A stretch of DNA of 64,000 nucleotides from Planctomycetota bacterium (lineage in GTDB: Bacteria > Planctomycetota > PLA2 > JAEUHO01), in assembly GCA_965223505.1 (NCBI GenBank), contig CBDCWP010000041.1, positions 1 through 64,000 on the forward strand. Direction: 5' to 3'. Below, in pieces: positions 142 to 48,142 of this stretch. A program made the position numbers and the translations under genes. The notes beneath the pieces are model-generated. The model saw nothing but the letters and a program-made list of their open reading frames with translations. It did no database searches and was not told the DNA's origin. The first letter of the stretch is position 1; each line of letters opens with the position of its first letter.

Positions 142-480
142 ATGCAGAACATCCGGTTCGAGGTACGCATCAACGAGGAAGTCGTCACGACGGCGGGCGT
201 CGATGGCTACGGCGTCCTGACGGCGATTCTCTCGTGGGTGCTACACGATCCGGATCGGATCCCGGAGCACGTTCGGTCGGGCACAGTGGACGAGCAGGCG
301 GAGTGGCTTCAGGAAGACCTGCGTATTCAGGTCGGAGGACTGGGCTCCGCTGGAAACCTCGACTGGGCGGATCAGCGCCTGAAGCTCGGCGACGAGGTCC
401 GCATCCGCGTGATGCCGCCCGGCCCAGTAGATGAGGCTGAGGTCCGGCCAGCCATGTGCGGGGACCCTGCGGATGGCTAG
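142..480 (+). CDS. hypothetical protein
   Basis: ATG at 142 within ORF 1..480; globular-looking sequence (MQNIRFEVRINEEVV...LKLGDEVRIRV); its end overlaps the next start. Confidence 0.6.
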   Translation: MQNIRFEVRINEEVVTTAGVDGYGVLTAILSWVLHDPDRIPEHVRSGTVDEQAEWLQEDLRIQVGGLGSAGNLDWADQRLKLGDEVRIRVMPPGPVDEAEVRPAMCGDPADG

Positions 481-868
481 ATGGGACGTCAAGGCGCACG
501 GCCACGTCGATAACGCTGTCCGGCATCAGGTCGCGGATGCCGTCGAGGGCCACGGGAACCTAGGCCATGTCCTTGCCTGGGGGGCGGCCGCGAGTCCCCC
601 GCGAAAGCCGGAAGACGTCGTCACGCAGGACGAATACACGCACGATGTCATCATGCTCTTCCAGAGCGGGATCTACGTGGTGTACGACGTCACCTGACTC
701 GGGGCGGTACAGGGGGTCTCCGTGTGGGACCGGATACCGACAGCCGACGACTTGTTGGCCGCCCGCCTTCAGCGCGGCTGGACGCCCCAGGCGAGCGCCG
801 TCCGTGGGGGAGACAGGGTTCTGGGGCATGCGGCCTGCGCGGTGACACGGGCCGATGAGGCACCCTGA
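473..868 (+). CDS. putative selenoprotein (in-frame TGA at 695-697, codon 75 of 131 aa)
   Basis: The ORF ...EDVVTQDEYTHDVI...YVVYDVT-TGA continues in frame as LGAVQGVSVWDRIPTADDLLAARLQRGWTPQASAVRGGDRVLGHAACAVTRADEAP-TGA(866-868); a hairpin follows the first TGA. Confidence 0.65.
705..739 (+). promoter_or_regulatory. candidate bacterial SECIS element
   Basis: Lower stem CGGTA/TACCG, internal loop, upper stem GGTCTC/GGGACC, apical loop CGTGT with G at loop position 2; the loop starts 24 nt after the TGA. Confidence 0.55.
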
Positions 869-1093
869 GTGTTCACGAGCCAGGGCTTGCGCGAAGTGCC
901 AGGACGGCCAGCACGGCAACGTCCTACCGTGGTATCCGGCGCGAAGCGCGCGACCTGCGTGTGCTAACGGTTCCGTGGTTCCGGACCGGGGGCGAGGCCA
1001 ATGGCCCGGGATGTTGCAGCTACAACACCCGGAAATCCGTCCTCACTCGTGGGTTACGAGAGATGCGGCCATCAACTCCAAGACACGCCTACA

Positions 1094-1140
1094 GGTTTCT
1101 AATCCGGCGGTCCCACGTTCGAGTCGTGGCGGGGGTGCCA
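1094..1140 (+). mobile_element. tRNA-Arg(TCT) 3'-half fragment, probable attachment (att) site of an integrated element
   Basis: Anticodon loop TTTCTAA, 3' anticodon stem TCCGG, variable loop CGGTC, T-arm CCACG-TTCGAGT-CGTGG, acceptor strand CGGGGGT-G-CCA; there is no matching 5' acceptor or D-arm upstream. Confidence 0.75.
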
Positions 1141-1189
1141 TCTTCCTGACAGATCGTCGGGCGTCTCGCCGACACGGCGAGAGACCGCT

Positions 1190-2419
1190 TCACACGGCGT
1201 CGCTCGTCGCGCTCTCGTCGAGCACCTCGTGGGCCACCGGCAGCTCGGGCAGCTCCTTCACCTTCTGGCGCCGTCGGCGACGGGTCTTCGCCGGAATCAG
1301 CTCACGCATCAGCTCCAACTTGCCGAAGCACAGCAACCGATCGCCCGCCTCCAACACGCGCTCCGCCCTGGGATTCGGAATGACCTTCGAATCACGATGC
1401 AACGTCAGCACGTTGATGTCCTTCTCACGGAAGTCCGACTCCGCGATCGAACGCCCGACGTACTTCGACCCGTCGGGAACGTGAATCTCGGTCACCCCGT
1501 AGCCGCGGCTGACGGTCAGCCGCTGGCGCAGGTCGATCTCCGCGAAGTCCACCTGCGCCGCGATGTAGTCCATGATGGATCCCGCGATGTCGAGCTGAGT
1601 GCAACGCTCGATGCCCTCGAGGCCGGGTGACGAGTTGACCTCCATGATCTGCGGACCGTCCTGACTCTCGAGCATGTCGACACCGGCGACACGCAAGCCC
1701 ATGATCTGCGCCGCGCGGACCGCCGTCTCCTTGTAGTCCTCGCCCAGCTCCACCTGCTCGGTGAGCCCGCCACGGTGGACATTGCTTCGGAACTCCTGTC
1801 CCTGCGCAACGCGCCGCATCGCCGCAACGACCTGATCCCCCACGACGAACGCGCGGATGTCACGCCCCCGGCTCTCCGCCACGAACTTCTGGATCAACAC
1901 GTTCTGCTTCTGGCTTTGGAGCAGTTCGATGATCGACTCGGCTGATTCGACGGTGTCGGCGAGCAAGACGCCGATCCCCTGCGTGCCCTCCAGCAGCTTG
2001 ATGACGACGGGCGCGCCGCCCACCCGCTGAATCGCCGGCAACACGTCTTTCTTGTCGCGAACGAAGGTCGTCTGCGGGATGCCGATGTGATGTCGGCTGA
2101 GGATCTGCAAGCTGCGCAGCTTGTCGCGAGAGTTGGAGATGCCGGCCGACGAGTTCGCGCAGAACACGTCCATCTGCTCGAATTGGCGCACGACGGCCGT
2201 GCCGAAGTACGTGATCGACGAGCCGATTCGCGGGAGCACGGCGTCGTAGTCGGAGAGCTGCTTCTGACGAAAGTACAGGTCCGGCTCGCCCCGTCGAAGG
2301 TCGATCGCGAACTTCAGCGTGTCGAGCACCTTGACGGTGTGGCCTCGCTGCGCCGCGGCTTCGCGCAGACGCCGCGTGCTGTAGCACTGCGGGCTGCAGG
2401 AGAGGATGGCAAGCTTCAC
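1190..2419 (-). CDS. rimK: RimK-family alpha-L-glutamate ligase (ATP-grasp) with C-terminal TrkA-C/RCK_C domain
   Basis: Motifs KLAILS..YSTRRL, RDKLRSLQIL, VIKLLEGTQGIGV, EFRSNVHRGG, MEVNSSPGLEGIE; C-terminal INVLTLHRDSKVIPNP..LEAGDRLL; GTG start with an AAGGAG RBS. Confidence 0.92.
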   Translation of the reverse strand: MKLAILSCSPQCYSTRRLREAAAQRGHTVKVLDTLKFAIDLRRGEPDLYFRQKQLSDYDAVLPRIGSSITYFGTAVVRQFEQMDVFCANSSAGISNSRDKLRSLQILSRHHIGIPQTTFVRDKKDVLPAIQRVGGAPVVIKLLEGTQGIGVLLADTVESAESIIELLQSQKQNVLIQKFVAESRGRDIRAFVVGDQVVAAMRRVAQGQEFRSNVHRGGLTEQVELGEDYKETAVRAAQIMGLRVAGVDMLESQDGPQIMEVNSSPGLEGIERCTQLDIAGSIMDYIAAQVDFAEIDLRQRLTVSRGYGVTEIHVPDGSKYVGRSIAESDFREKDINVLTLHRDSKVIPNPRAERVLEAGDRLLCFGKLELMRELIPAKTRRRRRQKVKELPELPVAHEVLDESATSDAV

Positions 2420-2535
2420 ACGGTCTCCTTCTCGAGGCGGGTCCGACCGCCGGGCTGAGTGTAGTGCCCGGCCGCGCGCCGCGTACAGAGGGGCCCGACC
2501 CTGGTCCGACCCCCCTCGCACAATGCGGGCCGATC

Positions 2536-3510
2536 ATGAACGACGACGACGGATTGGTGTTCGCGTGCTTGCTCGACGGGCAAGGGGGCGGCCGTTTCGG
2601 CGGGTGGGACCTCGTGCGCGAGGCGGCCCCCGGCGACGGGGTCCTCTGGGTGCATCTCGACCTGCGCGTCGAGCGCGCTCGCCGTTGGATCGAACAGGAG
2701 AGCGGCCTCGACGAGATCGCGCGGACCGCCCTGCTCGCACAGGCGTCGCGCCCGCGAAGCGTCGCGCGCGGCGACGCGTTGCTGGTGAACCTACGCGGCG
2801 TGAATCTCAATCCCGGCTCGGAGCCCGACGACATGATCGCGGTGCGGGTGGAGTTGGAGGGCCGCCGCGTGATCACGACACGGCGGCGGCGCCTCAAGGC
2901 GCTCCAGGACGTCAGGCGGGCGCTCGAGGGCGGCAACGGCCCGGTCGACACCGGGAGCTTTCTCGTCGACCTGATCGACCGACTCCTGCGGCGCATGGCG
3001 GTTGCGTTCGAGGCGCTCGACGACCGCATCGACGACGTGCAGGCACGGATCCTCACCGGCGCAGGTTCCGCCCTGCGCTCGGAGATCGCGGAGATCCGCA
3101 ACCAGGTGATCTCCATGCGGCGCTACCTCGCGCCGCAGCGGGACGCAGTCGCGCGCCTTCAGTCCGAGAAGGTGCCCTGGCTCACGGCCGTGCACCGCGA
3201 GGAGCTGCGCGATCTGGCCGACCGTACGACGCGACGGGTGGAGGACCTCGAGGCGGCGCGCGACCGGGCCACGGTCGCGCACGAGGAGCTGACAGGCCGC
3301 ATGGCCGAACAGATGAACCGGACCATGTACATCCTGGCGCTCGTCGCGGCGATCTTCCTCCCGCTCGGGCTCATCACGGGTCTGCTCGGCATCAACGTGG
3401 GCGGCATGCCCGGCGCCGAGAACCGCGCCGCGTTCTGGATCGTCTGCGGCCTGCTGGTTGCGCTTGCCGCGACCCAATGGTGGTGGTTCAAGAAGCGCCG
3501 ATTGCTCTGA
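2536..3510 (+). CDS. zntB: CorA-family zinc transporter ZntB
   Basis: LWVHLD, RPR, LRGVNLNPG..PDDM, and C-terminal transmembrane helices with the GINVGGMPG motif. Confidence 0.88.
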   Translation: MNDDDGLVFACLLDGQGGGRFGGWDLVREAAPGDGVLWVHLDLRVERARRWIEQESGLDEIARTALLAQASRPRSVARGDALLVNLRGVNLNPGSEPDDMIAVRVELEGRRVITTRRRRLKALQDVRRALEGGNGPVDTGSFLVDLIDRLLRRMAVAFEALDDRIDDVQARILTGAGSALRSEIAEIRNQVISMRRYLAPQRDAVARLQSEKVPWLTAVHREELRDLADRTTRRVEDLEAARDRATVAHEELTGRMAEQMNRTMYILALVAAIFLPLGLITGLLGINVGGMPGAENRAAFWIVCGLLVALAATQWWWFKKRRLL

Positions 3511-3522
3511 CCCACCGGCGGG

Positions 3523-4272
3523 CTACTTGCCCGCGGGAGACCTCCTTTTCTCCTCGCGGGCGTGAAGCCACTTGCGCCACGCCGCCGGCGTCTTGCCGGC
3601 ATCTTCGCCGGCAATCGCGGCGAGCGCTTCGTGCAGCGCCGCGCGCTCGGTCGTGGAGATCACGCTTCGCGTGGAGAGCACCTTGACGTCCTGAACGGCT
3701 CCAGCCTGGAGCGTGCCGATGATGGGATCGGCAATGAACGCCGTTCAGGCCACCTCGACGTCGAAGTCCTGCAGATAGCTTCGTTGCGTGATCTGCGCGA
3801 AGTAGCTGCGCGGCGCGTTTCCGCTCGAGCGCTCCCACCGCTTGACGAGGTACGGCAGCGCCCGTTCGTCCTTGGTTCTCCCGAGCGCCTTCGCCGCGCG
3901 CACACGGGTCGCGACGCTGCGGCTCTTCAGGGCCTCGACGAGGCGGTCGAACGCATCGCGCTTCACCGGCCTTGCGGGCGAGCGTTTCGGCTTCTCGGCG
4001 CCCCCCACGACGATCGCCAGCTGCTTGCGCGCCGCCTCCTTCGTGAGCCAGGCGTCGTCCACTCTGACGTAGCCCAGCGCCCGGCGCGCAGCGGCGTGAT
4101 CCGCGTCCTCGGCGAGCACCCGTTGGTAGAGCTTGCGGGCGTCCGCGGCTCGTCCGTCGTGCTCGCAGCGAAGCGCTTCGGCATAGAGTGCGCGGGTATC
4201 TACTTCGTCGTCGCCCGCGACTGCGGTCGCAACGAGCGTCGTCACGACGAGCGCGGTGATGATGTTCCGCAT
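3523..4272 (-). CDS. secreted HEAT-repeat protein with in-frame TGA (3745-3747, codon 176 of 249 aa); candidate selenoprotein or readthrough product
   Basis: ATG 4272 with GGGAGG RBS and a signal peptide; HEAT repeat (VRAAKALGRTKDERALPYLV); SYLQDFDVEVA-TGA-TAFIADPIIGTLQAGAVQDVKV...ALAAIAGEDAGKTPAAWRKWL...GK-TAG(3523-3525). Confidence 0.7.
3690..3749 (-). promoter_or_regulatory. candidate recoding/SECIS-like structured RNA around the in-frame UGA
   Basis: Hairpin TGCCGAT/ATCGGCA begins 11 nt after the TGA; second hairpin GCTCCA-GGC-TGGAGC; a 10-bp outer helix CCTGAACGGC/GCCGTTCAGG includes the UGA. Confidence 0.55.
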
Positions 4273-4373
4273 GTGAACCTCCCTGGTACACGATGCGGGA
4301 CGCGCCCATCCCTGGAAACGCACGCGGGCGGATCTTGCAGACGCAAATCGCGGCGGACAGCGCGGAGCGGCTC

Positions 4374-4604
4374 CTATGCGCCCATGTGGAGCGCGACGAG
4401 CGCTTCGAACTCCTCCTGGCACTCGCCGCAGATCTCCAAGTGCTGCCGAACGATTCTAAGATCCACCGCGGTCTCACCCCCGATGTCGACATACTCGAGA
4501 TACGCGGATACGCGCGCGAGGAACTCGTCGCAGTCGATCTCCGAGGGTTCGGTCGCCGCGACGACGCGTAGGAGCTCCTGGAGCAGGGAGAGGTCCACCT
4601 TCAT
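4374..4604 (-). CDS. small anti-sigma factor (zf-HC2-like)
   Basis: EIDCDEF...QHLEICGECQEEFEAL (HxxxCxxC); ATGA overlap with the sigma factor stop. Confidence 0.8.
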   Translation of the reverse strand: MKVDLSLLQELLRVVAATEPSEIDCDEFLARVSAYLEYVDIGGETAVDLRIVRQHLEICGECQEEFEALVALHMGA

Positions 4605-5224
4605 GATCGGTTCGACGCTCCTGCCAGCTCGGTTCTTACCTCCCGGTCGCTGAACCCGGCCTCGTTCAGCGCTCGTTTGAGCTTCTTGCGAGCATCGTGA
4701 TGAAGCTTGTAGAGGGCGTTTGGGTTGGTTCCAAGGCGCTGAGCGAGAACACGCGAGGGCACCCCCGCCAGCTCGCCCAGGACCGCACACCGCTGCCGAT
4801 CCGTAAGCACCTCCTCGATGGCGGCATGCAGCGTCGCGAGCAAGGATCTGCGCTCGGCCGCGCGACCGGGATCGACCGGGTTCTCTTTCAGCGGTTCGAC
4901 GCCCGGCAGCTCGAGCACTCCGACAGGTCGAAGGTCGTGCCGGCGACGTCTCAGCGCGCTGAGCGCGACGCGAACGGCCACCGCGGTTGCCCAGGTCGTG
5001 AAGCGGCTGTCGCCGCGGAACGTGTCGAGCCCTTTCAGTACACGCATCACGGCGTCCTGCGTGAAATCGTCGAGATCCGAGTCGCACACTTCCGCACGGC
5101 CGCGAAGTACGCGTGCCAGCACCCTGCGTAGGTAGGCGCACAGCTCGTCGGCGCATGCGTCGTCGTTCTTCCGAAGCTCTTCGAGCCACTGCGCGTTCGT
5201 TCTGTGCTGGAGTACGGTGGGCAC
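4601..5224 (-). CDS. ECF-family RNA polymerase sigma factor
   Basis: Region 2 DDFTQDAVMRV..LDTFRGDSRFTTWA; region 4 LTDRQR..LGTNPNALYKLHHDARKKL; GTG start inferred. Confidence 0.88.
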   Translation of the reverse strand: MPTVLQHRTNAQWLEELRKNDDACADELCAYLRRVLARVLRGRAEVCDSDLDDFTQDAVMRVLKGLDTFRGDSRFTTWATAVAVRVALSALRRRRHDLRPVGVLELPGVEPLKENPVDPGRAAERRSLLATLHAAIEEVLTDRQRCAVLGELAGVPSRVLAQRLGTNPNALYKLHHDARKKLKRALNEAGFSDREVRTELAGASNRS

Positions 5225-5377
5225 GTCTCTTCCTGTGCCTCCCGCAACCACGACGGGGAAGTGCGGACGGGGTTTCCGCTTTTCCGGAAAGCGCGGGTAA
5301 GGATCCGGGCGCTGCGGCGACCAACGCATGAGTGCCGAGTGGCACGAACCCCACAACCCATTCAGGAGTGACCCATC

Positions 5378-5878
5378 ATGGTCCGATTCAGCATGGTTGC
5401 AGCGGCTCTTCTCGTCGCCGTGGCTCTCTCTTCCTCATTCGACGCGGGCGCCGCGCCGTCGACCGCCGAGGGCGAGAGCCGCGCGTACCTGCATAGCTAC
5501 AACCTTCCGAGCAGCGGACTCGCGATCGACGGCTACTGCCCCGTCGCGTACTTCGCGGTGAACAAGCCGCTGCGCGGCAAGAAGGAGTTCTCGTCGACCT
5601 TCGACGACGTGACCTACCACTTCGTCTCCGCGGATGCCAAGAAGACCTTCGACAAGAACCCCGAGAAGTACCTCCCGGCCTACGGCGGCTGGTGCGCCTT
5701 CGGGATGGCGGTCTCCGACAAGTTCCCGGTGGACCCGACGAACTTCAAGATCGTCGACGGCCGGCTCATGCTGTTTCTCAAGAACAAGAACGTGGACGCG
5801 CGCGCGCTCTGGGACAAGGGCGACGAGCGCGAGCTCGTGCGTAAGGCCGAGGCCCACTGGAAGAAGGTCCAAGGCTAG
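5378..5878 (+). CDS. YHS domain-containing (seleno)protein family, Cys form, secreted
   Basis: Signal peptide; LAIDGYCPVAYF, YHFVS..F..NPEKYLPAYGGWCAFGMA, DP..FKIVDGRLMLF; AGGAG RBS. Confidence 0.85.
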   Translation: MVRFSMVAAALLVAVALSSSFDAGAAPSTAEGESRAYLHSYNLPSSGLAIDGYCPVAYFAVNKPLRGKKEFSSTFDDVTYHFVSADAKKTFDKNPEKYLPAYGGWCAFGMAVSDKFPVDPTNFKIVDGRLMLFLKNKNVDARALWDKGDERELVRKAEAHWKKVQG

Positions 5879-5931
5879 ACTCGGTCCGACGCCCCGGGGC
5901 CGGGCCGCGGCCCCGGGACTTCGAGAACGTC

Positions 5932-6504
5932 ATGCTCGAGAACCTGCTGACAGAGATTCGGAAGTGCGACGTCTGCGCGGAGCATCTGCCGCTCGGACCG
6001 CGGCCGGTGCTGACCGCGCATCGCGACGCGCGCCTCTTGGTCATCGGGCAAGCGCCCGGCAAACGCGTGCATGCCAGCGGCGTTCCCTGGGACGACCCGA
6101 GCGGCGACCGTCTTCGCGCGTGGCTCGGCGTCGACAGGGAGACCTTTTACGGGAAGCGGATCGCGCTCGTGCCTATGGGCTTCTGCTACCCGGGGACGGG
6201 CAAGTCCGGCGACCTGCCGCCGCGCAAGGAGTGCGCGGAACGTTGGCACGAACGGGTGCTGGAGCGCCTCCCGGCCGTCGAGCTCACGATCCTGCTCAGC
6301 CGCTACGCGCATGCGCACTACCTCGGCAAGCAGGCCAAGAAGACGCTCACGGAGACCGTCCGGTCCTGGCGTGCGTACACCCCGGCGCAGCTGCCGCTGC
6401 CGCATCCGAGCCCGCGCAACAACATCTGGCTCGAGAAAAACCCCTGGTTCGAGGCAGAGGTGCTGCCCTACCTGCGCCGCCGAGTCCGCCGCGTCCTGCG
6501 ATGA
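5932..6504 (+). CDS. uracil-DNA glycosylase family protein
   Basis: IRKCDVC, IGQAPG, WDDPSGDRLR.WLG, PMGFCYPG, PLPHPSPRN. Confidence 0.88.
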   Translation: MLENLLTEIRKCDVCAEHLPLGPRPVLTAHRDARLLVIGQAPGKRVHASGVPWDDPSGDRLRAWLGVDRETFYGKRIALVPMGFCYPGTGKSGDLPPRKECAERWHERVLERLPAVELTILLSRYAHAHYLGKQAKKTLTETVRSWRAYTPAQLPLPHPSPRNNIWLEKNPWFEAEVLPYLRRRVRRVLR

Positions 6505-6553
6505 GCGCTCGCCGCCAACGTAAACGAGCGATTCTGCGTATGCTCTCGGGCAC

Positions 6554-6896
6554 ATGCGCCCCGATCGGCTACGCGTCTTCGTCAGCTCCAAGATGGCCGA
6601 GCTCGCCCGGAGCGCGCTGCGGTCAAAGAGGTCCTCGACGATCTGAACGTGGACGCATGGGTCTGGAGGTCTACGCGGACGAGCGACTCGACCCGCGCGT
6701 GCTCTCCGTTTCGACCTCCGCGGCGATGGTGGTCGGCGCGATCGACGGCTTCGTCTGCTTCGCCGGCGTCCACATGCAGGAGCCGCTCGTGCAGCTCATC
6801 GGAGCGGTCGTGATCGCACTGGCGGTGCAGTACGTGATCATTCGCGCCGCGGTCGTGAGCGCGCTACAGGAACGGGCCGAGAAGGAGTCGCGCTAG
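6554..6896 (+). pseudogene. DUF4062-like gene with two apparent 1-nt deletions (pseudogene or assembly error)
   Basis: ATG 6554 gives MRPDRLRVFVSSKMAELA; the next frame gives ERAAVKEVLDDLNVDAWVW; a third frame gives EVYADERLD...hydrophobic tail to TAG 6896. Confidence 0.5.
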
Positions 6897-7165
6897 CGCC
6901 GCGTCGTCTCCAGCGACTCGAGGTCGATCGTCGGACAGCGCCGCACCGCGAGCAGGGCGTTCGCGAACGGCATGTCGAACGTCAGTCGCAGGTTCTCGCC
7001 GTCGACGACCTCGAGGCCGAGCTTCTCGAATCCCAGGTGCGAGAAGAACGCCAGCGCGCCGAAGAAGTCGTCGGCGTCGTCGGCCTTGATCGCGCCGCTC
7101 TTGACCAGTGCGTCCGACAGGATGCGGTGCGGGTCCCGCGGGGCTTCGTTGACGGGCTTGACCAT
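6893..7165 (-). CDS. hypothetical protein
   Basis: 90-aa ORF with ATG preceded by AGGAGG; GC-rich third codon positions. Confidence 0.6.
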   Translation of the reverse strand: MVKPVNEAPRDPHRILSDALVKSGAIKADDADDFFGALAFFSHLGFEKLGLEVVDGENLRLTFDMPFANALLAVRRCPTIDLESLETTRR

Positions 7166-7246
7166 GGTTTCGCCTCCTACGCTCGAAGTCGTGCAATCCT
7201 AGGCACCCCCCGGGACGCGCCCGCGGGACCTGATGGAAGCCTTCCC

Positions 7247-8383
7247 ATGCGCCGCGTGCTGTGCGCTGCACTCGTGTTCTCGCTCTCGCTGTGCGCCGCG
7301 GGCACGGCGCGCGCGGACGACCGTGGCGGCCCCGTCATCGAGCCGACGAAGAAACCGTGGCTGTGGGTCGCCCACCGCCACGACGCGACGATCTACCTCT
7401 ACGGAACCCTGCACGCGCCGGACGAACGCATCCTCGCCGTCCCCCCCACCGTCACGCGAGCGCTCGCGGCGAGTGACAATTTTGTCGCCGAAGTGCTCAT
7501 GACCGACGCGGTGCAGCATCAGCTGCTCTACCACATGCGCCTGCCCCGCAACCGGCCGCTCGCGTCGGTGATCCCGGCGCCGCTCTTCGACCGCGTCGCG
7601 AGAATCCTGAAGGACGCCGGGCAGTCCGTCGCGTCGTTCGAGTTCATCAAGCCCTGGCGGCTCGACGTCCACATCGGCGAGCTGGACGCGCCGAGAGACA
7701 CGCGCGCGAAAAGGAGCATCGACCAGCTGCTGTACGAACGAGCACGCGACGCCGGCAAGAAGCTCGACGAGCTCGAGAGCGCCTACGGGCAGATCGGCTT
7801 CTTCGACAGCATGTCGTACGCGGAACAGTCACGCTTGCTCGGCCAGACCGTAGAGCGCCTCGAGTCCGATCGCGCCAAGGGCGTCAACGGCGTCGACTCG
7901 ATGATCCGGTCGTATCTCTCCGGCGACGTGGAGCGGCTCATGCGAGAGGTCGAGAGCTACTTCGACTTCACGGTCGAGGCCGACGTCGAGCTCTACCAAC
8001 GCATGCACGCGAAGCGCAACGAGAAGATGGCCGCGCGGCTGCTGCGCAAGATCGCAGAGGATCCCGGCAAGTCCTGGTTCGTGGCGATCGGCGCGGCGCA
8101 CGTTCCGCGCGCCTCGGGTCTCGTGGCCCTGCTCGAGCTACAGGCCTTCGACGCATGGCGCGTCGTGGAAGACGACGATCTACCGGAGTCACGCGAGGAG
8201 GCGGCGCAACGGATGAAGGAGATCTGGGTCGCCCGGATGAACGCGAATGCCGCCGAGCTCGTCACCGATCGCCCGGGCCTGGATGCCGCGCCGACCGACG
8301 CGGCGAGCGAACGGCGAACTAGACCGCGCCGCTGTCGCGCAAGGCGTCGATGTCGCTGCTTCCCATTCCGAGGACTTCGCTGA
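7247..8383 (+). CDS. TraB/GumN family protein (secreted)
   Basis: Signal peptide; WLW...IYLYGTLH, ELES...QI, RNEKMA, FVAIGAAHV. Confidence 0.85.
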   Translation: MRRVLCAALVFSLSLCAAGTARADDRGGPVIEPTKKPWLWVAHRHDATIYLYGTLHAPDERILAVPPTVTRALAASDNFVAEVLMTDAVQHQLLYHMRLPRNRPLASVIPAPLFDRVARILKDAGQSVASFEFIKPWRLDVHIGELDAPRDTRAKRSIDQLLYERARDAGKKLDELESAYGQIGFFDSMSYAEQSRLLGQTVERLESDRAKGVNGVDSMIRSYLSGDVERLMREVESYFDFTVEADVELYQRMHAKRNEKMAARLLRKIAEDPGKSWFVAIGAAHVPRASGLVALLELQAFDAWRVVEDDDLPESREEAAQRMKEIWVARMNANAAELVTDRPGLDAAPTDAASERRTRPRRCRARRRCRCFPFRGLR

Positions 8384-9521
8384 GCACCTCTTCGGTGTGC
8401 GAGCCCACGTCGCCGCCCGGCCAGCGGGTGCCGCCGGGCGTTTCGCCGAGCTTCGGCCCGAGCGCCGGCAGCTTGACCGGCCGCCCCCCCACCTCGACCT
8501 CCTCGAACATGCCGCGCGCCTGGTAGTGCGCGTCGTCGAGCATGTCCGCGACGCTGTAGATCGGTCCGCCCGGAACACGCGCGTCGTTCAGCGCGGCAAC
8601 GACGTCGGCCGACGGGAGCGTCGACGTCCACGCCGCGATGGCTTCATCGATCTCGGCCTGGTGCACCATGCGCTTCTCGTTGGTCGCCAACCGCTCGGCG
8701 CTCGCCATGTCCGCGCGGCCCGCGGTCTCCATCAAGCGCCGGAAGATCGAGTCGCCGTTCGCTCCGATGACGACGCGCTTGCCGTCGCTGCACGGGTACG
8801 CGTCGGTAGGTACGACGCCGGTGATCGTCGTGCCGGACGGTTCGCGCACGACGCCGCAACGGTCGTATTCCGGCACCGCGCCCTCCATGAGGTTGTAGAC
8901 GGCCTCGTAGATCGCGACGTCCACGACCTGCCCGCGCCCGCCCGCGTCGCGCTCGCGCCGAACGAGCGCGAGCAACACGCCGATCAGCGCCTGGAACGCC
9001 GCCAGCGAGTCGCCGATGCTCAGGTTGGAGCGCACCGGCGTCTCGCCGGGATGGCCCGTGACGTAACGCAGTCCGCCGAACGCCTCGCACACCGACGCGA
9101 AGCCGCCGCGCGACGCATTGGGACCGTCCTGCCCGAAGCCGGAGACGCGCGTGTAGATCAATCCCGGATTGCCCTTGCGCAGGTCGTCGGGTCCGAGCCC
9201 CCAGGACTCCATCGTCCCCGGGCGGAAGTTCTCGATCACGACGTCGCACTTCGCGGCCAGCCTGCGTACGACGTCACGGCCCGCTTCGCTTCGAAGCTCC
9301 GCGGTGACGAGGCGTTTGTTCCGACCTAGGCTGCGCCACCAAAGCGAGGTGCCTTCGTCCACGACACGCCAGCCGCGCACCGGATCGCCGTCCCCGGGAC
9401 GCTCGACCTTGATCACGTCCGCGCCGAAGTACGCCAGGTACGTGCCGGCCATGGGCCCCGCCATGAGCTGGCCCAGCTCCAGCACCCGAATGCCCGCGAG
9501 CGGGCCCTTGTTCGTCGCCAT
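8319..9521 (-). CDS. CaiB/BaiF class III CoA-transferase
   Basis: PLAGIRVLELG, GADVIKVE.PG.GDP.R, RNK, DVVIENFRPG, SGFGQDGP. Confidence 0.92.
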   Translation of the reverse strand: MATNKGPLAGIRVLELGQLMAGPMAGTYLAYFGADVIKVERPGDGDPVRGWRVVDEGTSLWWRSLGRNKRLVTAELRSEAGRDVVRRLAAKCDVVIENFRPGTMESWGLGPDDLRKGNPGLIYTRVSGFGQDGPNASRGGFASVCEAFGGLRYVTGHPGETPVRSNLSIGDSLAAFQALIGVLLALVRRERDAGGRGQVVDVAIYEAVYNLMEGAVPEYDRCGVVREPSGTTITGVVPTDAYPCSDGKRVVIGANGDSIFRRLMETAGRADMASAERLATNEKRMVHQAEIDEAIAAWTSTLPSADVVAALNDARVPGGPIYSVADMLDDAHYQARGMFEEVEVGGRPVKLPALGPKLGETPGGTRWPGGDVGSHTEEVLSEVLGMGSSDIDALRDSGAV

Positions 9522-9641
9522 CGGCGCCTCCCTGACAAGCCGCAAGAGCGTAGCCCGCCTAGCGACGACGGCCCCGCGCGCCCCGGCGGGCTTCCCGCCA
9601 AAAGACGTCTCGCCGCGCGACGGCGGGTAGGAATCAGGGAC

Positions 9642-10898
9642 GTGAAGCCGACGTCTCGTCTCATCGCCGCCCTCCTTGTCGCGTGCCTCGCAGGCGGCTG
9701 CGGCGACGAGGAGCCCGACTCGATCGCCGCCTGGATCGCGAAGCTCGACGACGAGGACGTGAACGAACGCTATCGCGCCGCGACCGCGCTCGCCGACGAG
9801 GGCGCGCGGGCCGTTCCGGATCTAATCGAACGGCTCGGCAAGCACACGCACGGAAGCGGGGAACGCCCGCGCGACGAAGGCCGGCACGACCCGCGGCAGA
9901 TCGTCACCGACACGCTGGTCCTGATCGGCGAACCGGCCGTCCCGGCACTCATCGAGTCGCTCACCCTGGAGGAAGAGCTCGAGCGGCGCCTGGCCGCCGT
10001 CGCGCTGCAGCGAATCGGCGTCGGCGAGGATCATCTGCCGCGCCTGATCGAGATCATGGACCACGACAACCCGATGGTCGCCGGGATCGCGGGCGGTCTG
10101 GTGGTCGAGGCGAAGACCGGCAAGTCGCTCCTTCACGAGGTGCTCACGGGCGCTTCGTATTCGACGCGCGCCAAGACCCGCGCGATTCGCGCCCTTGCGG
10201 CACTCGACGATTCCGACGCCCTGCAGTGGATCACCGACGCCCTCGGTGCGCCGGATGCCGCGGTGCGGCTCGAGGCGGTCAAGGCAATGAACGCGTTGAG
10301 CAGTCGCGTGAATGCGGCGGACGCGCTCATCCCGTTGCTCGACGACGAAGACGAACAGGTGCGCATCTGGGCGTCCACCGCGCTGCGAAGTCAGGGTGAC
10401 GCGGCCGCGGACGGACTCCTGCGCGTGTTGGGCGAAGGGTCGGCACGCGCGCGCAGCCTCGCCGCCGGCGTCCTCGCCGCACACGGTGAGCGCGCACTCG
10501 CGGCCGCGCCGCGACTGGCGGACAACCTCGAGCACGCCGACGCCATGGTTCGTGTGCGCTGTGCCGCGGCGCTGCACGCCGTCGCACGAGACATCGAGCG
10601 TGCGTTGCCGGTGTTGCTCGCGGCCGCGGCGGACGCGGATGGCGATGCCCGCCTCGAGGCGGTCACGGCGTTGGCCGGCTTCACGGCCGCAGCGGACGAG
10701 GTGGTGCCCGCGCTCATCGAAGCCTTGCGCGGTGACGACGAAGCGGTGGCGCGGCGAGCGGCGCGCAGCCTGGGCGCTCTCGGCGCCGAGGCCGAGAGCG
10801 CGCTCGAGACCCTGGAGCGCGCCGCGCTGGCCAACGACGAGGTGCTACGGGAGACCGCCAAGCGGTCGATCGAGGCAATCCGGGGGGCGGGCAAGTGA
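9642..10898 (+). CDS. HEAT-repeat lipoprotein
   Basis: Lipobox-like LAGGC after a hydrophobic leader; multiple PBS/HEAT repeats (VRLEAVKAM, VRIWASTAL). Confidence 0.8.
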   Translation: MKPTSRLIAALLVACLAGGCGDEEPDSIAAWIAKLDDEDVNERYRAATALADEGARAVPDLIERLGKHTHGSGERPRDEGRHDPRQIVTDTLVLIGEPAVPALIESLTLEEELERRLAAVALQRIGVGEDHLPRLIEIMDHDNPMVAGIAGGLVVEAKTGKSLLHEVLTGASYSTRAKTRAIRALAALDDSDALQWITDALGAPDAAVRLEAVKAMNALSSRVNAADALIPLLDDEDEQVRIWASTALRSQGDAAADGLLRVLGEGSARARSLAAGVLAAHGERALAAAPRLADNLEHADAMVRVRCAAALHAVARDIERALPVLLAAAADADGDARLEAVTALAGFTAAADEVVPALIEALRGDDEAVARRAARSLGALGAEAESALETLERAALANDEVLRETAKRSIEAIRGAGK

Positions 10899-11296
10899 CG
10901 CTTCGCAGGTGGATCGACCGGCTGGACGACGAGGATCCGGTCGTGCGCTGCCAGGCTGCGAAAGCGCTGGGCAAGGCGGGTCCGGATGCGGCCGACGCGG
11001 TGACCGACCTGACGGCCCGGCTCGCCGACCCCGATCCGATGGTCCGCGGCATGGCGGGCGCGGCGTTGGGGAAGATCGGGGTGGCGTCGGACGAGGCCGT
11101 GCGGGCCCTCGTCGGTCTGCTGGCGGACCCGGTGGTGCCGGTGCGCTTCTGGGGCGCGGACGCCCTCGGGCGGCTTGGCGCCGACACACCCGCGGTGCGC
11201 AAGGGACTCTCGGCCCTGAGCCGTGACACGCATCCCATGGCGAAGGCGGCCGCCGCAGCAGCGCGCAACGCGCTCGTCAGGCTGGATCAGGGCTAG
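10895..11296 (+). CDS. HEAT-repeat protein
   Basis: LDDEDPVVRCQAAKALG, LADPDPMVRGMAGAALG; GTGA overlap with the upstream gene. Confidence 0.8.
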   Translation: MTLRRWIDRLDDEDPVVRCQAAKALGKAGPDAADAVTDLTARLADPDPMVRGMAGAALGKIGVASDEAVRALVGLLADPVVPVRFWGADALGRLGADTPAVRKGLSALSRDTHPMAKAAAAAARNALVRLDQG

Positions 11297-11376
11297 CAAC
11301 GTGTCGAAATCGGACCTGCGTGCGGTGTCGAAACGCAACTCTGAAAGCGGGGCGGTCGAGCGGTAGTATCTGGCCC

Positions 11377-11658
11377 ATGCCGAGTCCGCAATCGATGCGC
11401 CGTCTTGCCAACCTGACGCGCAAGGTCCGTAACGACCTGAGGCGCGGTGGCATGGCGGTCACCTTCAAGTACCTGTTTCGCTCCACCGCCATTCTCGCCC
11501 GTGTCGTCGAGCTGCTTGCCGAGGCGCAAGCCACGCAGGCCGAGGAAGACGCGGCACGTGTCGCTGCCGGCGAGTGTCCGACCTGTGGCTCGGACCAGAA
11601 GGAGAAGGGCCCGTCGCGCCGGAAACGGCGGACGGCGGAGTCGCCGACCGAGTCCTAG
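11377..11658 (+). CDS. hypothetical protein with a single CxxC
   Basis: Fills the gap between genes; helical N-terminus, ECPTCG, basic tail. Confidence 0.5.
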   Translation: MPSPQSMRRLANLTRKVRNDLRRGGMAVTFKYLFRSTAILARVVELLAEAQATQAEEDAARVAAGECPTCGSDQKEKGPSRRKRRTAESPTES

Positions 11659-12038
11659 GCTCGCGTTTCGCCAGGCGGCCTCAGTGCCTCGCGAATCGCG
11701 GAGCGCAGCGACTCCACGCTGAACGGCTTCTCGATGATCTTGTAGATCGTCAGCTTGCCGAAGTCGTCGGAGCTCATGTCCTTGACGTGTCCGGAAACGA
11801 TGATCACGGGGCACAGGTTCGCGCCGGTGTCGAACTGCACGGTCTTGAGTACCGCGGTGCCGCCGCCGCCGGGCATGTAGAGGTCCAGGATCAGCAGATC
11901 CGGGCCGAAGCTGCGGTAGGCCGACACGGCGCTCGGGGTGTCGTAGGCCTGCATGACCTCGTGATTGTCGAGCTTGCACGCGAACGCGATCATGTCGCGC
12001 ATCGGAGCTTCGTCGTCTGCGATCAGGATCTTCGCCAT
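11655..12038 (-). CDS. single-domain response regulator (receiver)
   Basis: KILIADDE, DLLILDLYMPG, VIIVSG, IEKPF. Confidence 0.9.
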   Translation of the reverse strand: MAKILIADDEAPMRDMIAFACKLDNHEVMQAYDTPSAVSAYRSFGPDLLILDLYMPGGGGTAVLKTVQFDTGANLCPVIIVSGHVKDMSSDDFGKLTIYKIIEKPFSVESLRSAIREALRPPGETRA

Positions 12039-12042
12039 GGCG

Positions 12043-12291
12043 CTAACTGAACACTTTCCGAAGCGCGTTCTCGACGAGCTTCCACGGCACGATCGCGGGC
12101 TTGTTCGTCACCTCGACGCGCAGCAGCGATCCGTCGACGGCATACGTGCCCTCGGCGGTTCCCTTGAACCGTCCGGCGGCGTCATCCCCCTCGATGACGA
12201 TGCCCGACGAGCGCGCCTCCGTCTTCGCCTTCGTCATGAGGGCATCGACGTCGACGTTGTCAGCCAGCGGAAATTCGAAGGACTTCGCCAT
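12043..12291 (-). CDS. small hypothetical protein (possibly polyhydroxyalkanoate-system-protein-like)
   Basis: MAKSFEF...EGDDAAGRF...EGTYAVDG...VEVTNKPAIVPWKLVENAL. Confidence 0.65.
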   Translation of the reverse strand: MAKSFEFPLADNVDVDALMTKAKTEARSSGIVIEGDDAAGRFKGTAEGTYAVDGSLLRVEVTNKPAIVPWKLVENALRKVFS

Positions 12292-12392
12292 GTGCTCTTC
12301 CTGCGACTCGTTCCTAGGACGAGAAAGTAGACCCCAACCGCACGGAACTGCCAAGTACCAGGCCGTCGCCTTCGCACCTCCTTTTCGACCAT

Positions 12393-13034
12393 CTAGCGCG
12401 GCGGCCGCTCCGGCATGGGCAGGTGGGGAACCAGATCGGCCACGTCGGGCATCTCGGCGCGCAGCTGATCCTGAACCTCCTTGGGCGGCTGGGGCCCCTT
12501 GTAGGGACGACGAGAGATCAACGCGTCGTAGCGATCCGCCAAGGCCAGGATGCGCCCGGCGCGCATGAGCTTCCGGGAGACCGGCCGGCGCCGATCCGGC
12601 GACCGGCCCGCCTCGACGGACCGGCGCTCCTTGCCCGAACGCGGATAGCTCGCGTCGCCCTGCAGCTCGTGGTGGAGCGGGATGATCCGGTGGGCATCGG
12701 GGAACGCGTCCAGTCGGAGAAGCTCCGGCGTCGCCGCGGCAGGGTGCCGGCGCATCTGCGCGAGCTCGACGTCGTCGAGCGGCCCCGGCTTGTTGACGAT
12801 CCGGCCGTCGATCTTGGTCTTGCCGAGATCGTGCAGGATCGCGGCGACCGCCAGCTCCTGTGTCGCCTGTTCGTCGAGGCCGTCCGCTCGAGCGAGGTAC
12901 GCGGCGAACCGGGCGACGCGCAGACAGTGCCGATAGGTGCCCGCGTCGTAGCGCTGGATGGCGTCGGCCAGGGGCCGCACGTCGTCCCGCGCGAGCAAGT
13001 CTGCCAGCAGCTGCGGGACGGCCTCCATCGACAT
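12393..13034 (-). CDS. HD-GYP-like metal-dependent phosphohydrolase
   Basis: TYRHCLRVA, ILHDLGK, HHE...SYP, LADRYDAL.SRRPYK; TGATG coupling to mutY. Confidence 0.85.
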   Translation of the reverse strand: MSMEAVPQLLADLLARDDVRPLADAIQRYDAGTYRHCLRVARFAAYLARADGLDEQATQELAVAAILHDLGKTKIDGRIVNKPGPLDDVELAQMRRHPAAATPELLRLDAFPDAHRIIPLHHELQGDASYPRSGKERRSVEAGRSPDRRRPVSRKLMRAGRILALADRYDALISRRPYKGPQPPKEVQDQLRAEMPDVADLVPHLPMPERPPR

Positions 13035-14122: not shown

Positions 14123-14224
14123 GCGCGCAGGCTATCCGAGGTTGCCCACACGCGGTGCACGGAACGGAACGGGCCGAATTGCAAACGGCCGGACCCAAGG
14201 GGCCCGGCCGTCGGCTGGAAGCGC

Positions 14225-14242
14225 GATCGGCAACTGCCGATC
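14225..14242 (-). promoter_or_regulatory. candidate SECIS hairpin
   Basis: Perfect 7-bp stem GATCGGC/GCCGATC with loop AGTT (G at loop position 2); the loop starts 22 nt after the TGA at 14257-14259; no U-tract follows. Confidence 0.55.
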
Positions 14243-14727: not shown

Positions 14728-15064
14728 GTGGCCTCCTGACCCCGGGTGCCCGGGGTTCGCCGAGCCGGTCTGCCAACCGTCTCGGCCAGCCCATCCCTCC
14801 CTGATGGATCGGCTTTCGGCGGGCATTGAAGCCCGGTCGAGTCACGGGAGTTTCACAACGTGAGCGAAATCCCGACCGGTTCGCGGCCCGCGCCGGACTC
14901 CATGAATCCCTCAGATTGGCTCTGATGCCCGGAATTCTCTGGAATTTGGGGGTTCACTTTCTTGGACGACGCCGCCGGACGACGGATTCCGGCCGCGCGT
15001 CCAGTCTGGGGTCCCGAGGCGGCCCGGGAGCCGTAAGATGGCGCCCCCGCGACCCGGAGATGCC

Positions 15065-25546: not shown

Positions 25547-25554
25547 GTCGTAAC

Positions 25555-43162: not shown

Positions 43163-43167
43163 GGGTT

Positions 43168-44661: not shown

Positions 44662-44720
44662 GCTGGGAGTTTCCGAGAGATGCCCGTGGGTTTCCAGTGC
44701 CCGCCCCGCGGCGGCGACGA

Positions 44721-46151
44721 TCAGTCGAGACGGTGGATCGACTCGACGAAGCGCTCGACCGCTGCGCGCCCGTCCTTCCAGGCGGTGAGCGGGCAGGCCA
44801 ACAAGACCACCAGCCGACCGGGGTCACGGTCCACCACGACCGCGACGGTACGCACCTTGTCGCCTCGCAACGTCCCTTCCAGCTCCATGCGCCAGCCGTC
44901 GTCGAGCTCTTCGATCGCCTGGGCGCTCGAGACGACCTTCAGATCTTCGCAGGCCGTACGCAGCCGCTTCAGCAGCCAGGTCTCGCCGTCCTGCATGCCC
45001 GGGGCGATCCGCTGGCCCTCCGGATGCCACTCGAAGCGGGCGTCGGTCGTGATCGCCGCGGCGTTGGCGCGACCGAGCAAGCGCCATCCGGTGTGCAGCG
45101 GCGCAATCGCCTTCGCCTCGTACCTCCACGCCGAATCGGGCAGACGGAAGCCGATGCCCGCCTCGACCAGCTTCACGTCGCTGCGGTTCGGATCGCTCTC
45201 GCGCCTGCTGTTCTCTTCCCGCGCGGCCAACGCCTGCTCTTTGCCGACGGGCTTCGCCAGAATGCCGGGCTCCACGTGCTCCTCGTGCGGACGCGTGTCG
45301 CGGTGGAAGAACGCGATCAGCCGCTCGCCGTCCTGCTCCCAGTGAAACTCGTCGCGCTTCGGCTTGGGGTCCTCGTCCTCGCGCTCGTCGATGCCGACGA
45401 ACCCTGCACGCACGCGCGACAGCTTGGCCTTCTCGCCGTCCACGATGTACGTGTCGACGATCTCGATCTCGCGCTCCCGTCGCAGGAGATGCTCGCGCAG
45501 GCCCAGCCGTCCGCGGGTACCGACCGCGAGCTCGATGTTCTTGCGCTTGCTCTTGCCGCCCTCGCTGATCGTCGCCCGCCAGATACCGTCGGTGACGTCA
45601 CCCGACACCGCGCGCTCGAACCGCCCGGGTCCGCCGGGGATCGCGGAACGCTCGCGGACCTCGCGAAACGCCAGACGACGCGGCATGAAGCGCAGGTCCA
45701 CCGACTCGTGGCGCCAGACCCGCATTGCGGGCACGTGTTTGCCCTGCGCGAAGTAGTTGAGGTTCTCCTCCAACCGGAAGCCGGGCGCGGTCTTGGAGCG
45801 CACGGTCCAGAGCTCCAGATGGCGCGTGCCGACGATGCGTCCCTCCGAGTAGAGCAGAAACCACTCGTCGCGCAGCGGCTCGACGTCCGCGCGTGTCGTC
45901 ACGGCGCCCTCGCCGCGCTTGACGCTCACGACGTCCTCGATGGGCGCGGTGTACTCGAAGAATCCCGTCGCGGAGAAGCTGCGGATCACGACGTGATGAT
46001 CGCTCTCCTCGAGGATCTTGCCGTGGATCTGCTTGCCGCCCTTCAGGACGAGGAGATCGGTATTGCGCTCGTCCTTGGAACGGTCGTTCTCGTCGGCCGA
46101 GACGACGGCACAGCACACGAGCAGCACGCAGAAGATCGAGACATGACGCAT
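44721..46151 (-). CDS. secreted hypothetical protein
   Basis: Signal peptide; N-terminal DLLVLKGGKQIHGKILEE beta-module; long open frame directly downstream of selB. Confidence 0.75.
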   Translation of the reverse strand: MRHVSIFCVLLVCCAVVSADENDRSKDERNTDLLVLKGGKQIHGKILEESDHHVVIRSFSATGFFEYTAPIEDVVSVKRGEGAVTTRADVEPLRDEWFLLYSEGRIVGTRHLELWTVRSKTAPGFRLEENLNYFAQGKHVPAMRVWRHESVDLRFMPRRLAFREVRERSAIPGGPGRFERAVSGDVTDGIWRATISEGGKSKRKNIELAVGTRGRLGLREHLLRREREIEIVDTYIVDGEKAKLSRVRAGFVGIDEREDEDPKPKRDEFHWEQDGERLIAFFHRDTRPHEEHVEPGILAKPVGKEQALAAREENSRRESDPNRSDVKLVEAGIGFRLPDSAWRYEAKAIAPLHTGWRLLGRANAAAITTDARFEWHPEGQRIAPGMQDGETWLLKRLRTACEDLKVVSSAQAIEELDDGWRMELEGTLRGDKVRTVAVVVDRDPGRLVVLLACPLTAWKDGRAAVERFVESIHRLD

Positions 46152-46210
46152 GGCGCCATCCTACTGCGTTCTGGATCGAATCCGTGGATTCCACGGACGA
46201 ACCGGCGTCG

Positions 46211-48142
46211 CTATTTGACGACGCGCTTGTTGCCGACGCGGCGCGAGAACCCGGATTTGTCGAGCGCCTCGAGCAGCGGGATGACCCACTTGCGCGTGGT
46301 GTTCATCACGGTGCGCGCGTCGGCAGGCGTGAATCCGCCCTGCGCCTGCGCGATCTCGGCCAGCTTCGCCTTCTGTGCTTCGAGCCAGCCCGCGTCGAAC
46401 CAGAAGTCCTCGGCCTTGAACACGAGACGGCGTTGGTGCAGGAGACGCAGCGCGCGGTTGAGCTCGGGGCTCGACAGACGCAGCTCCGCCTCCAGAGCGT
46501 CCACGGCGGGCGGCTGCCCGCCGCCGGCGGCAAGCAGCGCCAGGATGCTGTCGCAGCGCGCCTTGTCCTCCGGGGGGAGGTCGGACGAGTGATCCTTGTG
46601 CCGGACGTTGCCGTCCGCAGTCCGCACGAACGTGCCGGCGGCGGTCAAGCGATCGAGAACGGTGTCGAGCACGACGGGCTCCGTACGGCCCGCGGCCGAC
46701 CGCACCGCTGCGAGCGAGAGGGCGTCGACGGCGGCGTCCTTCTCGTGCAGCTTGCGAACCGCGGCTTCGACGCGCCGCGCGACCTTCTCGAACGCCGCGC
46801 CGGTGATCCAGCGGCCCGAGCGCCCCACCGCGACGGCCTCGCCGGACGACACGAGCGCCTCGACGAACGCCGGCAGCGAGCGGGGCTGCAACGCGGTGGC
46901 GGCCGCGATCTCGTCGAGCGTGCAGCCGCGCTCGCCGGAGGCTGTGATGCACGACGTCACGAGCGCCTGCGGATCGTCGAGGTGCTCCGCGAGCGCCATC
47001 AACGCGTCGAGGCGGCCCTGGCGGCGCGGCGGAATGCGCCGGGTCAACAACTCGACGACGACGCCGCCCCCCCACGTCGACGACGCGTTCTCGGCGCGAA
47101 GCACCAGACGGTCACCGGGCGCCGCGACGAACGGCTTGTCCGACTCGAGCTCCACGATCGCGACGCCGCCCTTCTCGATGGGCTTGCGCGACGGCACGTG
47201 GACGCGCACGACGACCTGGTCCGACCCCAGATGCAAGCGCGCGCGATCGCCGTGTTCGATCCGCTTGCGAACGCTCTTCAGGACGCGCAACTTCGCGGCG
47301 ACACGATGGACGGGCTTCAAGACGCCGGCGGTCGCCACGACCATGCCGCGCTTGACCTTGTCGACGTGGATGTCGGTGAGCGCGAGCGCGGCGCGATGTC
47401 CCGCGCGGGCGTCTTCCGACGATCGATGGTGCACCTGGATCCCACGCACGCGGCTCGGCCACACGGCCGGAAGCACATCGACGCGGTCGCCGTCGGCGAT
47501 CTGTCCGGAGATCGGAATGCCGGTGACGATCGCGCCGCGGCCGGGCGCCAGGAACGAACGCAACACCGGCATGCGGAAGATGCGCGCGTCGTCCGCGCGC
47601 TTCACGGACTCGGGAATGGTCGCCGAGATGGCGTCGCGCAACTCCTCGACGCCGTCGCCCGTCTCGGACGAGACGTAGAGGATCGGTGCGCCTTCCATGC
47701 CGGTCGTCGCGAGCAGGTCGCGGACCTCCTCGGCGGCGATGTCGCACATCTCCCTCTCGACGAGGTCCGTCTTGGTGAGCGCGACGACCAGGCGCGTCAC
47801 CCCGAGGACGTCGAGGATCTCGACGTGCTCGCGGGTCTGCGGCATCGGACCGTCGTCCGCCGCGACGACGAGCAGGGCGAGGTCCATCGCCGTGGCGGCC
47901 GCGACCATGGTGCGCACGAGCCGCTCGTGGCCGGGAACGTCCACCAACCCGACCTCGGTGCCGTCCTGGAGGCTGAAGGTCGCGTAGCCGACGTCGATCG
48001 TCATGCCCCGCTCGCGCTCCTCGGGCAGCCGATCGGCGTTCATCCCGGCCGTGAGCCGCTTCACGAGCGCAGTCTTGCCATGGTCGATGTGCCCGGCGGT
48101 CCCGAGGATCACACGGCGTACGGCGGGGGCGGTTGAGGTCAT
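46211..48142 (-). CDS. selB: selenocysteine-specific translation elongation factor SelB
   Basis: [51 protein letters not shown], and a C-terminal winged helix [13 protein letters not shown]...RRVGNKR. Confidence 0.95.

Follow-up and report, generated by a model that had tools for sequence, protein, structure and literature searches.

Three open reading frames (ORFs) in one stretch of planctomycete DNA stop at a TGA, and each poses the question of whether that codon ends the protein or is read as selenocysteine (Sec). The stretch, hereafter the window, is the 64,000 nucleotides of C41:1–64000 (contig CBDCWP010000041.1), part of an assembly of 5.15 Mb, 67.4% G+C and 44 contigs. The codons lie where the original prediction for this DNA had placed them, at 695–697 on the plus strand (site 1) and at 3745–3747 (site 2) and 14257–14259 (site 3) on the minus strand. 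That prediction took all three for hidden selenoproteins outside the classical families, a claim that holds for site 1, holds in part for site 2, where the UGA is recoded and Sec is only likely, and finds no support at site 3. We consider it probable that this planctomycete uses Sec in a large set of proteins, that site 1 belongs to a selenoprotein, that site 2 is recoded with Sec as its likeliest reading and that site 3 is a plain stop.

Sec machinery and the selenoprotein family of site 1

The genome decodes UGA as Sec, as had been proposed: selA, selB, a Sec-containing selD and tRNA-Sec were all found. The selB gene noticed in the window (46211–48142, minus strand), encoding the Sec-specific elongation factor of 643 aa, was confirmed by its match to TIGR00475 (335.6 bits, cut-off 242.25), with residues 11–643 aligned on model positions 1–580 of 581. 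The selA gene (C8:36851–38236, 507 bits) lies on contig C8 together with selD (C8:38315–39232, 338 bits), whose single in-frame TGA falls inside the GAGG-U-AAK motif. One copy of tRNA-Sec was detected (C43:10939–11037), and the genome holds no other UCA or suppressor tRNA. The only tRNAs of the window are a tandem pair on the minus strand, tRNA-Glu(CUC) and tRNA-Gln(CUG), at 25471–25630.

TGA is also a genuine stop in this genome, again as had been suggested. The 4257 predicted genes end with TAG (2217), TGA (1756) or TAA (284), TAG being the commonest stop despite the 67% G+C, and since TGA is the ordinary stop of 1756 of them, any recoding is local and not a change of code. In the window, a GTGA start/stop overlap at 10895–10898 joins two HEAT-repeat genes (9642–11296, plus strand), with TGA acting as a normal stop.

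Judged from sequence, site 1 is a genuine selenoprotein, on the combined evidence of a conserved TGA, Cys-containing homologues, a covarying Sec insertion sequence (SECIS) and the Sec machinery of the genome. The gene (473–868, plus strand) is read through the TGA at 695–697 and continues 56 codons further, up to a second TGA (866–868), giving a protein of about 131 aa that belongs to an unnamed family and was not matched by any Pfam or NCBIfam model at E≤1. The family motifs are QDEYTHD, DVT-U-LG and GHAAC, and every invariant residue is kept in the window copy. Relatives were searched with one genome per species; 129 were found, and the codon was read in the 80 loci kept and in three earlier loci. 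It was TGA in 84 out of 84 matches spanning the site. The carriers are mostly Gemmatimonadota, together with Planctomycetota, Myxococcota (including cultured Nannocystis) and Acidobacteriota, and all five carrier genomes sampled encode SelB above the cut-off. The extensions of the relatives are mostly 51–65 codons long, going by the commonest lengths, and end with TGA (45), TAA (21) or TAG (18).

A profile search against 1.84 billion database representatives retrieved 908 matches at E≤1e-3. Among the best 150 of these, 83 were N-terminal fragments, 41 were C-terminal fragments and 18 contained both halves, and about 80 of the 83 N-terminal fragments stop one residue before the TGA, with endings such as DTT (49) and DVT (14). 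The family is unmodelled in current family libraries and is routinely cut in two by gene callers. In the alignment of the top 25 representatives, most of them full-length and a few partial, the residue at the site was C in 12, W in four, S in three, R in two, P and G in one each, and a gap in two.

The hairpin downstream of the window's UGA (715–731, plus strand) has a stem of 6 base pairs (bp), GGUCUC/GGGACC, around the loop CGUGU, and is shifted 6 nucleotides (nt) downstream relative to the main clade; most relatives carry GACGGC-GGUC-GCCGUC from 11 nt past the UGA. Across 79 distinct rows, 90.5% of the pair cells in columns 15–20/25–30 were standard pairs. The outer pair 15–30 appears as GC (52), CG (15), UG (2) and AU (1), and pair 17–28 changed from CG to UA twice. 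The covariation score was 0.191 as against 0.065 in shuffled alignments, none of 500 of which reached it, and all slid controls scored lower.

Several observations weigh against the selenoprotein at site 1. RNAalifold returned no consensus structure for the 79-row alignment, although the pair counts support the hairpin. Scored for in-frame coding potential, the extension comes out neutral (−0.04 per codon), and some of the W and G residues seen in database relatives may stem from a TGA read with another translation table. Finally, the window copy is of the minority type GVSVWD, not TAVAVWD, and its shifted hairpin is largely set by the VSVWD codons; one Val codon has to pair with its third base, and it is GUC in 12 out of 12 rows of this kind.

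Invariant or nearly invariant positions in the family are QDEYTHD (52–58), D72, T74, U75, G77, W85, P89, R98, W103 and C122; of those downstream of the Sec, G77, W103 and C122 never vary and W85 hardly does. The AlphaFold2 model (predicted local distance difference test, pLDDT, 86.6; predicted template modelling score 0.81) is a small alpha+beta domain in which U75 occupies the turn between strands 67–74 and 78–85, and the tail 121–130, which includes C122, is disordered. A sequence profile search of the PDB gave no matches, and Foldseek found nothing in the PDB for the model at E≤0.001. The best candidate of the VIA wide search, OsmE (4dm5), was rejected, its Z of 6.9 being inside the noise range stated for the tool. 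As a mechanism, we propose that SelB bound to the 6-bp hairpin with its G-U-containing apical loop would deliver Sec-tRNA to the UGA at 695–697. The product would be a cytoplasmic protein of about 130 aa with Sec75 in a beta-hairpin turn beside the invariant QDEYTHD, and it may form a selenol/thiol redox couple in which Sec75 attacks and the invariant Cys122, on the flexible C-terminal tail, resolves.

Site 1 resembles the known selenoproteins that depend on SelB and a SECIS in the coding region, such as Escherichia coli FdhF and the thioredoxin-fold UxxC proteins, in its in-frame UGA, its homologues with Cys and its conserved second Cys. In the fdhF hairpin the loop is GGUC; a G and a U are essential, and a U is bulged. 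The apical loop of site 1, GGUC in most relatives, begins about 17–24 nt past the UGA, like that of an FdhF-type SECIS. Unlike FdhF and the UxxC proteins, the site 1 protein has no Pfam, NCBIfam or PDB sequence match and no clear structural neighbour, and it is not thioredoxin-like. Table 1 of a 2026 review (PMC13188914) lists 119 selenoprotein families, each with an identifier; as site 1 matches no Pfam or NCBIfam model, every family that this table gives under a PF, NF or TIGR identifier is excluded, the few cd or PTHR entries lying outside the comparison. In the literature searched, passages of BSepDB (PMC13326102) included, no name was found for the family of site 1 or of site 2. Site 1 represents a widespread selenoprotein family, with hundreds of clusters at 50% identity in at least four phyla and with cultured Nannocystis strains among its carriers. 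Its apparently unmatched alpha+beta fold, combined with the Sec...Cys pair, makes it a candidate for new selenium redox chemistry.

No neighbour genes are conserved around site 1: the largest cluster was made up of the ORF antisense to the site 1 gene itself, and the upstream gene of the window (142–480) was not conserved beside the relatives. The same genome contains a second copy of the family (C40:169510–169734, locus L030) in which the TGA is retained and the downstream half is 72% identical, but the QDE motif is one base short and the N-terminal half incomplete; this copy is probably a decaying paralogue. In genome G023 (contig C127, about 135681–136039, loci L029/L031), four bases are missing exactly at the Sec codon and the two halves lie in different frames, this copy being either a pseudogene or an assembly slip.

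The recoded UGA of site 2

The site 2 gene (3523–4272, minus strand) would encode an exported protein of 249 aa when read through the TGA at 3745–3747, from which the frame extends for 73 codons to a TAG at 3523–3525. The protein comprises a signal-peptide-like start, TPR and HEAT repeats (HEAT_2, 29.5 bits, cut-off 27.7) and a C-terminal part with a secretin-like beta-hairpin. Its junction peptide is DFDVEVA-X-TAFIADPIIGTLQAGAVQDVK, where X is the residue at the UGA, and the core motif of the family is FDVEVA-x-T(S/A)FIADP. All full-length copies of the TGA type begin with a signal-like peptide. Two of the three proteins had been described as apparently exported, and signal-peptide-like or lipobox-like N-termini were indeed found at sites 2 and 3.

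Relatives spanning the site were detected in all 40 genomes of the order. The 28 aligned rows have Gln (15), Ser (5), Ala (4) or a stop (4) at this position, and Lys is also among the residues of the paralogues; in database proteins with the motif (n=24), the residue is Q in 19, S in four and A in one. Copies of the TGA type number eight, in seven genomes and in both families of the order, and a further eight matches, all with TGA, came from metagenomes searched with a pattern that accepted TGA, TGC or TGT, so that the codon is TGA in 16 out of 16 sequences of the subfamily. Downstream of it, all 16 copies retain an open frame, and motifs such as IADP and AWxxW are kept. The ratio of non-synonymous to synonymous substitution rates (dN/dS) in the downstream part was 0.30, 0.31, 0.50, 0.36 and 0.38 for the five informative pairs, compared with 0.17–0.50 over about 60 codons upstream in the same pairs. 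With the codon conserved and the part beyond it under purifying selection, the decoding of this UGA is very likely real, as far as sequence comparison can tell.

In the structural model, residue 176, encoded by the UGA, is placed at the turn of a long beta-hairpin (158–175/178–194), with a pLDDT of 81.7 overall and 53–69 in this region. According to the model, a product stopped at the TGA would lack half of this hairpin, and the C-terminal secretin-like beta-hairpin would be made only if the UGA is decoded, most likely by Sec. Foldseek retrieved nothing from the PDB for the model at E≤0.001. The genome's own 955-aa TPR-secretin carries a Secretin domain (PF00263), known from type II/III secretion and pilus systems, whose first part shares about 53% identity with residues 152–198 of the site 2 protein; both proteins have TPR repeats. 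Unlike a secretin, the site 2 protein has only 249 aa and one beta-hairpin's worth of the domain; PF00263 is unlisted for it even at E≤1, HEAT_2 being the only match above its cut-off.

Two hairpins follow the UGA in the window copy. Hairpin 1 (3714–3733, minus strand) begins after a spacer of 11 nt, has 7 bp around the loop CCCAUC and falls in the codons of the conserved ADPxxG peptide, and hairpin 2 (3698–3712, minus strand) reads GCUCCA/GGC/UGGAGC after a spacer of 32 nt. At +12 to +34, TGA-type sequences form the more stable hairpin: over positions +12 to +38, the mean folding energy was −12.3 kcal/mol for the TGA type (n=15) and −9.6 kcal/mol for non-TGA sequences (n=24; Mann–Whitney p=1.8e-4, the rows being related), and hairpins of at least 5 bp with GU in the loop were present in 8 out of 15 versus 4 out of 24. 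Copies of the second family have a hairpin at SECIS distance with a bulged A on its 5' side and the loop GGU or CGGU. In the four copies of the window's family, a second hairpin stands at about +32 despite divergent peptides, with the loops GGC (window), AGUU, GGUC and AGGU.

A number of results speak against Sec at this site. The loop of hairpin 1 in the window lacks the GU found in most of the confident Sec sites of the genome, and this hairpin is set by the ADPxxG codons, perfect versions of it occurring in several non-TGA paralogues. Hairpin 2 starts 32 nt past the UGA, while the GU-loop candidates of the genome start at 11–20 nt and the farthest confident Sec site at about 23 nt. No Cys occupies the site in any of the 24 non-TGA rows, the 24 database proteins or the eight pattern matches, and no partner Cys elsewhere in the protein is conserved or co-occurs with the TGA. 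TGA-type copies of the window's family are, moreover, interleaved in the tree with Ser, Ala and Lys paralogues. The expectation that homologues carry TGA or Cys is therefore borne out in both respects at site 1 and in the TGA alone at site 2. Considering this failure of the Sec/Cys test and the non-canonical SECIS of the window copy, Sec is only likely here.

Other explanations of the conserved TGA differ greatly in their plausibility. That the TGAs are assembly or sequencing errors is a practically negligible prospect. At the TGAs of sites 1–3, the contigs of four public runs, all of a single study, show no differing letter; these runs possibly stem from the source sample and are not independent support, but the many independent assemblies in which the codon recurs rule out error for sites 1 and 2. 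It is also highly improbable that the UGA of site 2 simply terminates a 175-aa N-terminal protein, the downstream frame being a decaying remnant. Gene callers do give the 175-aa product, and the TPR/HEAT part could, to judge from the model, fold alone. However, a remnant would hardly agree with a frame that is open in every copy with dN/dS of 0.3–0.5 and retained family motifs, nor with a UGA lying inside a single predicted beta-hairpin. The lineage is old as well: the eight second-family copies form a clade (support 100/98) with long branches, the Gln type being a separate clade.

A different possibility, unlikely though far from negligible, is that the UGA is read without the Sec machinery, by programmed read-through with a near-cognate tRNA (e.g. 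that for Trp), so that most of the product would be truncated and a smaller share full-length. The lack of a Cys form and of a partner Cys, the tolerance of Q, S, A and K in paralogues and the non-canonical loop of the window copy are all compatible with it. In its conserved UGA, purifying selection downstream and missing Cys counterpart, site 2 resembles what is said of the Qbeta coat protein A1 and of insect SPS1, whose UGA is reportedly read through in a non-Sec manner. In bacteria, moreover, in-frame stops that are conserved and show dN/dS below 1 are reported to be widespread (PMC7918605). Nevertheless, unlike these cases, site 2 has a host with a full Sec system and a stabilized hairpin after the UGA, more stable than in the paralogues, and in second-family copies the bulged hairpin, with its GGU loop, stands as far from the UGA as a SECIS would. 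No copy has TAG in place of the TGA, though TAG is the commonest stop in the genome, and Trp is found at the site in no relative. All TGA carriers have selB; however, selB exceeds the cut-off in 39 out of 40 genomes of the order, so that its presence or absence cannot discriminate between the readings. On balance, decoding as Sec is the likeliest mechanism for site 2, somewhat more probable than all else together.

The residue itself looks chemically dispensable, given that relatives use Gln, Ser, Ala or Lys, and the UGA may act mainly as a gate on the amount of full-length protein. A stronger form of this idea, which we hold to be distinctly unlikely, is that the UGA is a selenium-gated translational switch and not a catalytic residue, the beta-hairpin being gained only via Sec-tRNA and SelB across this planctomycete order. 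If so, selenium supply or the capacity of the Sec machinery would determine how much of the protein is truncated and how much is full-length. Because standard searches for selenoproteins depend on Sec/Cys pairs, they would miss site 2. If its UGA is read as Sec, the protein is a selenoprotein without a cysteine counterpart; if not, it is a rare bacterial case, in a cellular gene, of conserved and programmed read-through of UGA.

Directly upstream of the site 2 gene, on the same strand, the window encodes an extracytoplasmic function (ECF) sigma factor (4601–5224) and a zf-HC2 anti-sigma factor (4374–4604), together 4374–5224; this pair was absent beside the site 2 relatives that were fetched. 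Paralogues of the Q, TGA and A/K types are found in tandem in genomes G019, G020 and G023. In G020 (contig C296, locus L036, minus strand), the TGA-type frame is stop-free for 323 codons, into the next paralogue.

Hairpin background, the selenoproteome and site 3

How much a hairpin after a TGA says was assessed with a fixed criterion: a perfect stem of at least 6 bp with a loop of 3–6 nt, starting 8–25 nt downstream of the codon. Such hairpins stand after 20.5% of TGA stops (n=1756), 22.6% of TAG stops (n=2217) and 21% of sense codons drawn at random (n=3927); with GU required in the loop, the values are 4.8%, 5.6% and 3.8%, respectively. In the window, 8 out of 23 TGA-ending genes are followed by one. 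The stem-loops on which the original prediction relied are present after all three TGAs, but by themselves they are near chance level, a hairpin after about 21% of any codons being weak evidence when the rate is about equal after stops and sense codons. In a genome of 67% G+C, a TGA followed by a hairpin is no evidence on its own, and comparative evidence decides each site.

The hairpin becomes informative once it is combined with coding sequence on both sides. At in-frame junctions with coding sequence upstream and downstream, a GU-loop hairpin was detected for 16 out of 51 TGA codons, 2 out of 89 TAG codons and 0 out of 14 TAA codons, and many of the 16 TGA junctions show UxxC or CU motifs (examples are C5:23891, C11:7404, C30:72518, C30:73462, C34:130208 and C44:227969). 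By this count the selenoproteome would comprise some 16 genes or more, in addition to selD. The SECIS stems of the 16 candidates are 6–8 bp long with spacers of 11–20 nt, one AhpC/TSA site reaching about 23 nt, and an in-frame TGA interrupts 6 out of 18 AhpC/TSA-family matches in the genome. Confident loops include GGUC, GGGUC, GGUCC and GGUUC; exceptions are a TlpA-like gene with the loop CGGGC, and selD, which has no hairpin under the criterion used. No in-frame stops were found inside PF00384 domain matches, a search that does not cover the Sec site of FdhA, and an Rfam scan of window positions 1–15500 at E≤5 returned two chance-level matches only and no SECIS family.

The TlpA-like and AhpC-TSA selenoproteins of this genome, with hairpin loops GGGUC, GGUCC, GGUC and GGUUC, share with sites 1 and 2 the Sec machinery and the splitting of their genes by gene callers. 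They are ordinary UxxC redox proteins with abundant Cys homologues; sites 1 and 2 belong to other families, and site 2 has no Cys homologue at all.

Site 3 closes an orphan ORF (14257–14727, minus strand) with a lipobox-like start (LLAIAAAFVAAGC) and the end GGCGPGG-TGA-GGG-ATC-CCC-AAC-TAG. The in-frame protein-like extension proposed for all three sites, which holds for the 56 codons of site 1 and the 73 codons of site 2, amounts here to four codons (G-I-P-N) before the TAG at 14242–14244. The hairpin GAUCGGC/AGUU/GCCGAUC (14225–14242, minus strand; 7 bp, spacer 14 nt, loop AGUU) is unique in the window, and further downstream, at 14185–14211 on the same strand, a GC-rich hairpin followed by UUUGC resembles a terminator. 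We consider site 3 to be probably an ordinary TGA stop followed by hairpins. The alternative, a lipoprotein ending in CGPGG-U-GIPN whose SECIS would lie across and past the TAG, is improbable. The hairpin geometry, which is like that of confident SECISs in this genome such as C30:73462, and a Cys five residues before the UGA count in favour of Sec, as does the recurrence of the TGA in the contigs of the four public runs mentioned above, which possibly stem from the source sample. On the other side stand the mere four codons after the TGA and the weak coding score of the ORF. There are also no relatives with which conservation could be compared, the searches giving one chance-level match in the order (E 0.004) and only the self-match among 5.8 billion proteins. 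Furthermore, at the background of 4.8% among the 1756 ordinary TGA stops, about 84 TGA-ending genes would carry a GU-loop hairpin like that of site 3.

Elsewhere in the window, the ORF at 5420–5878 (plus strand), which ends with TAG and has no in-frame TGA, gave a weak YHS-domain match (21.8 bits, below the cut-off); a YHS-domain selenoprotein family is included in the literature table (PMC13188914).

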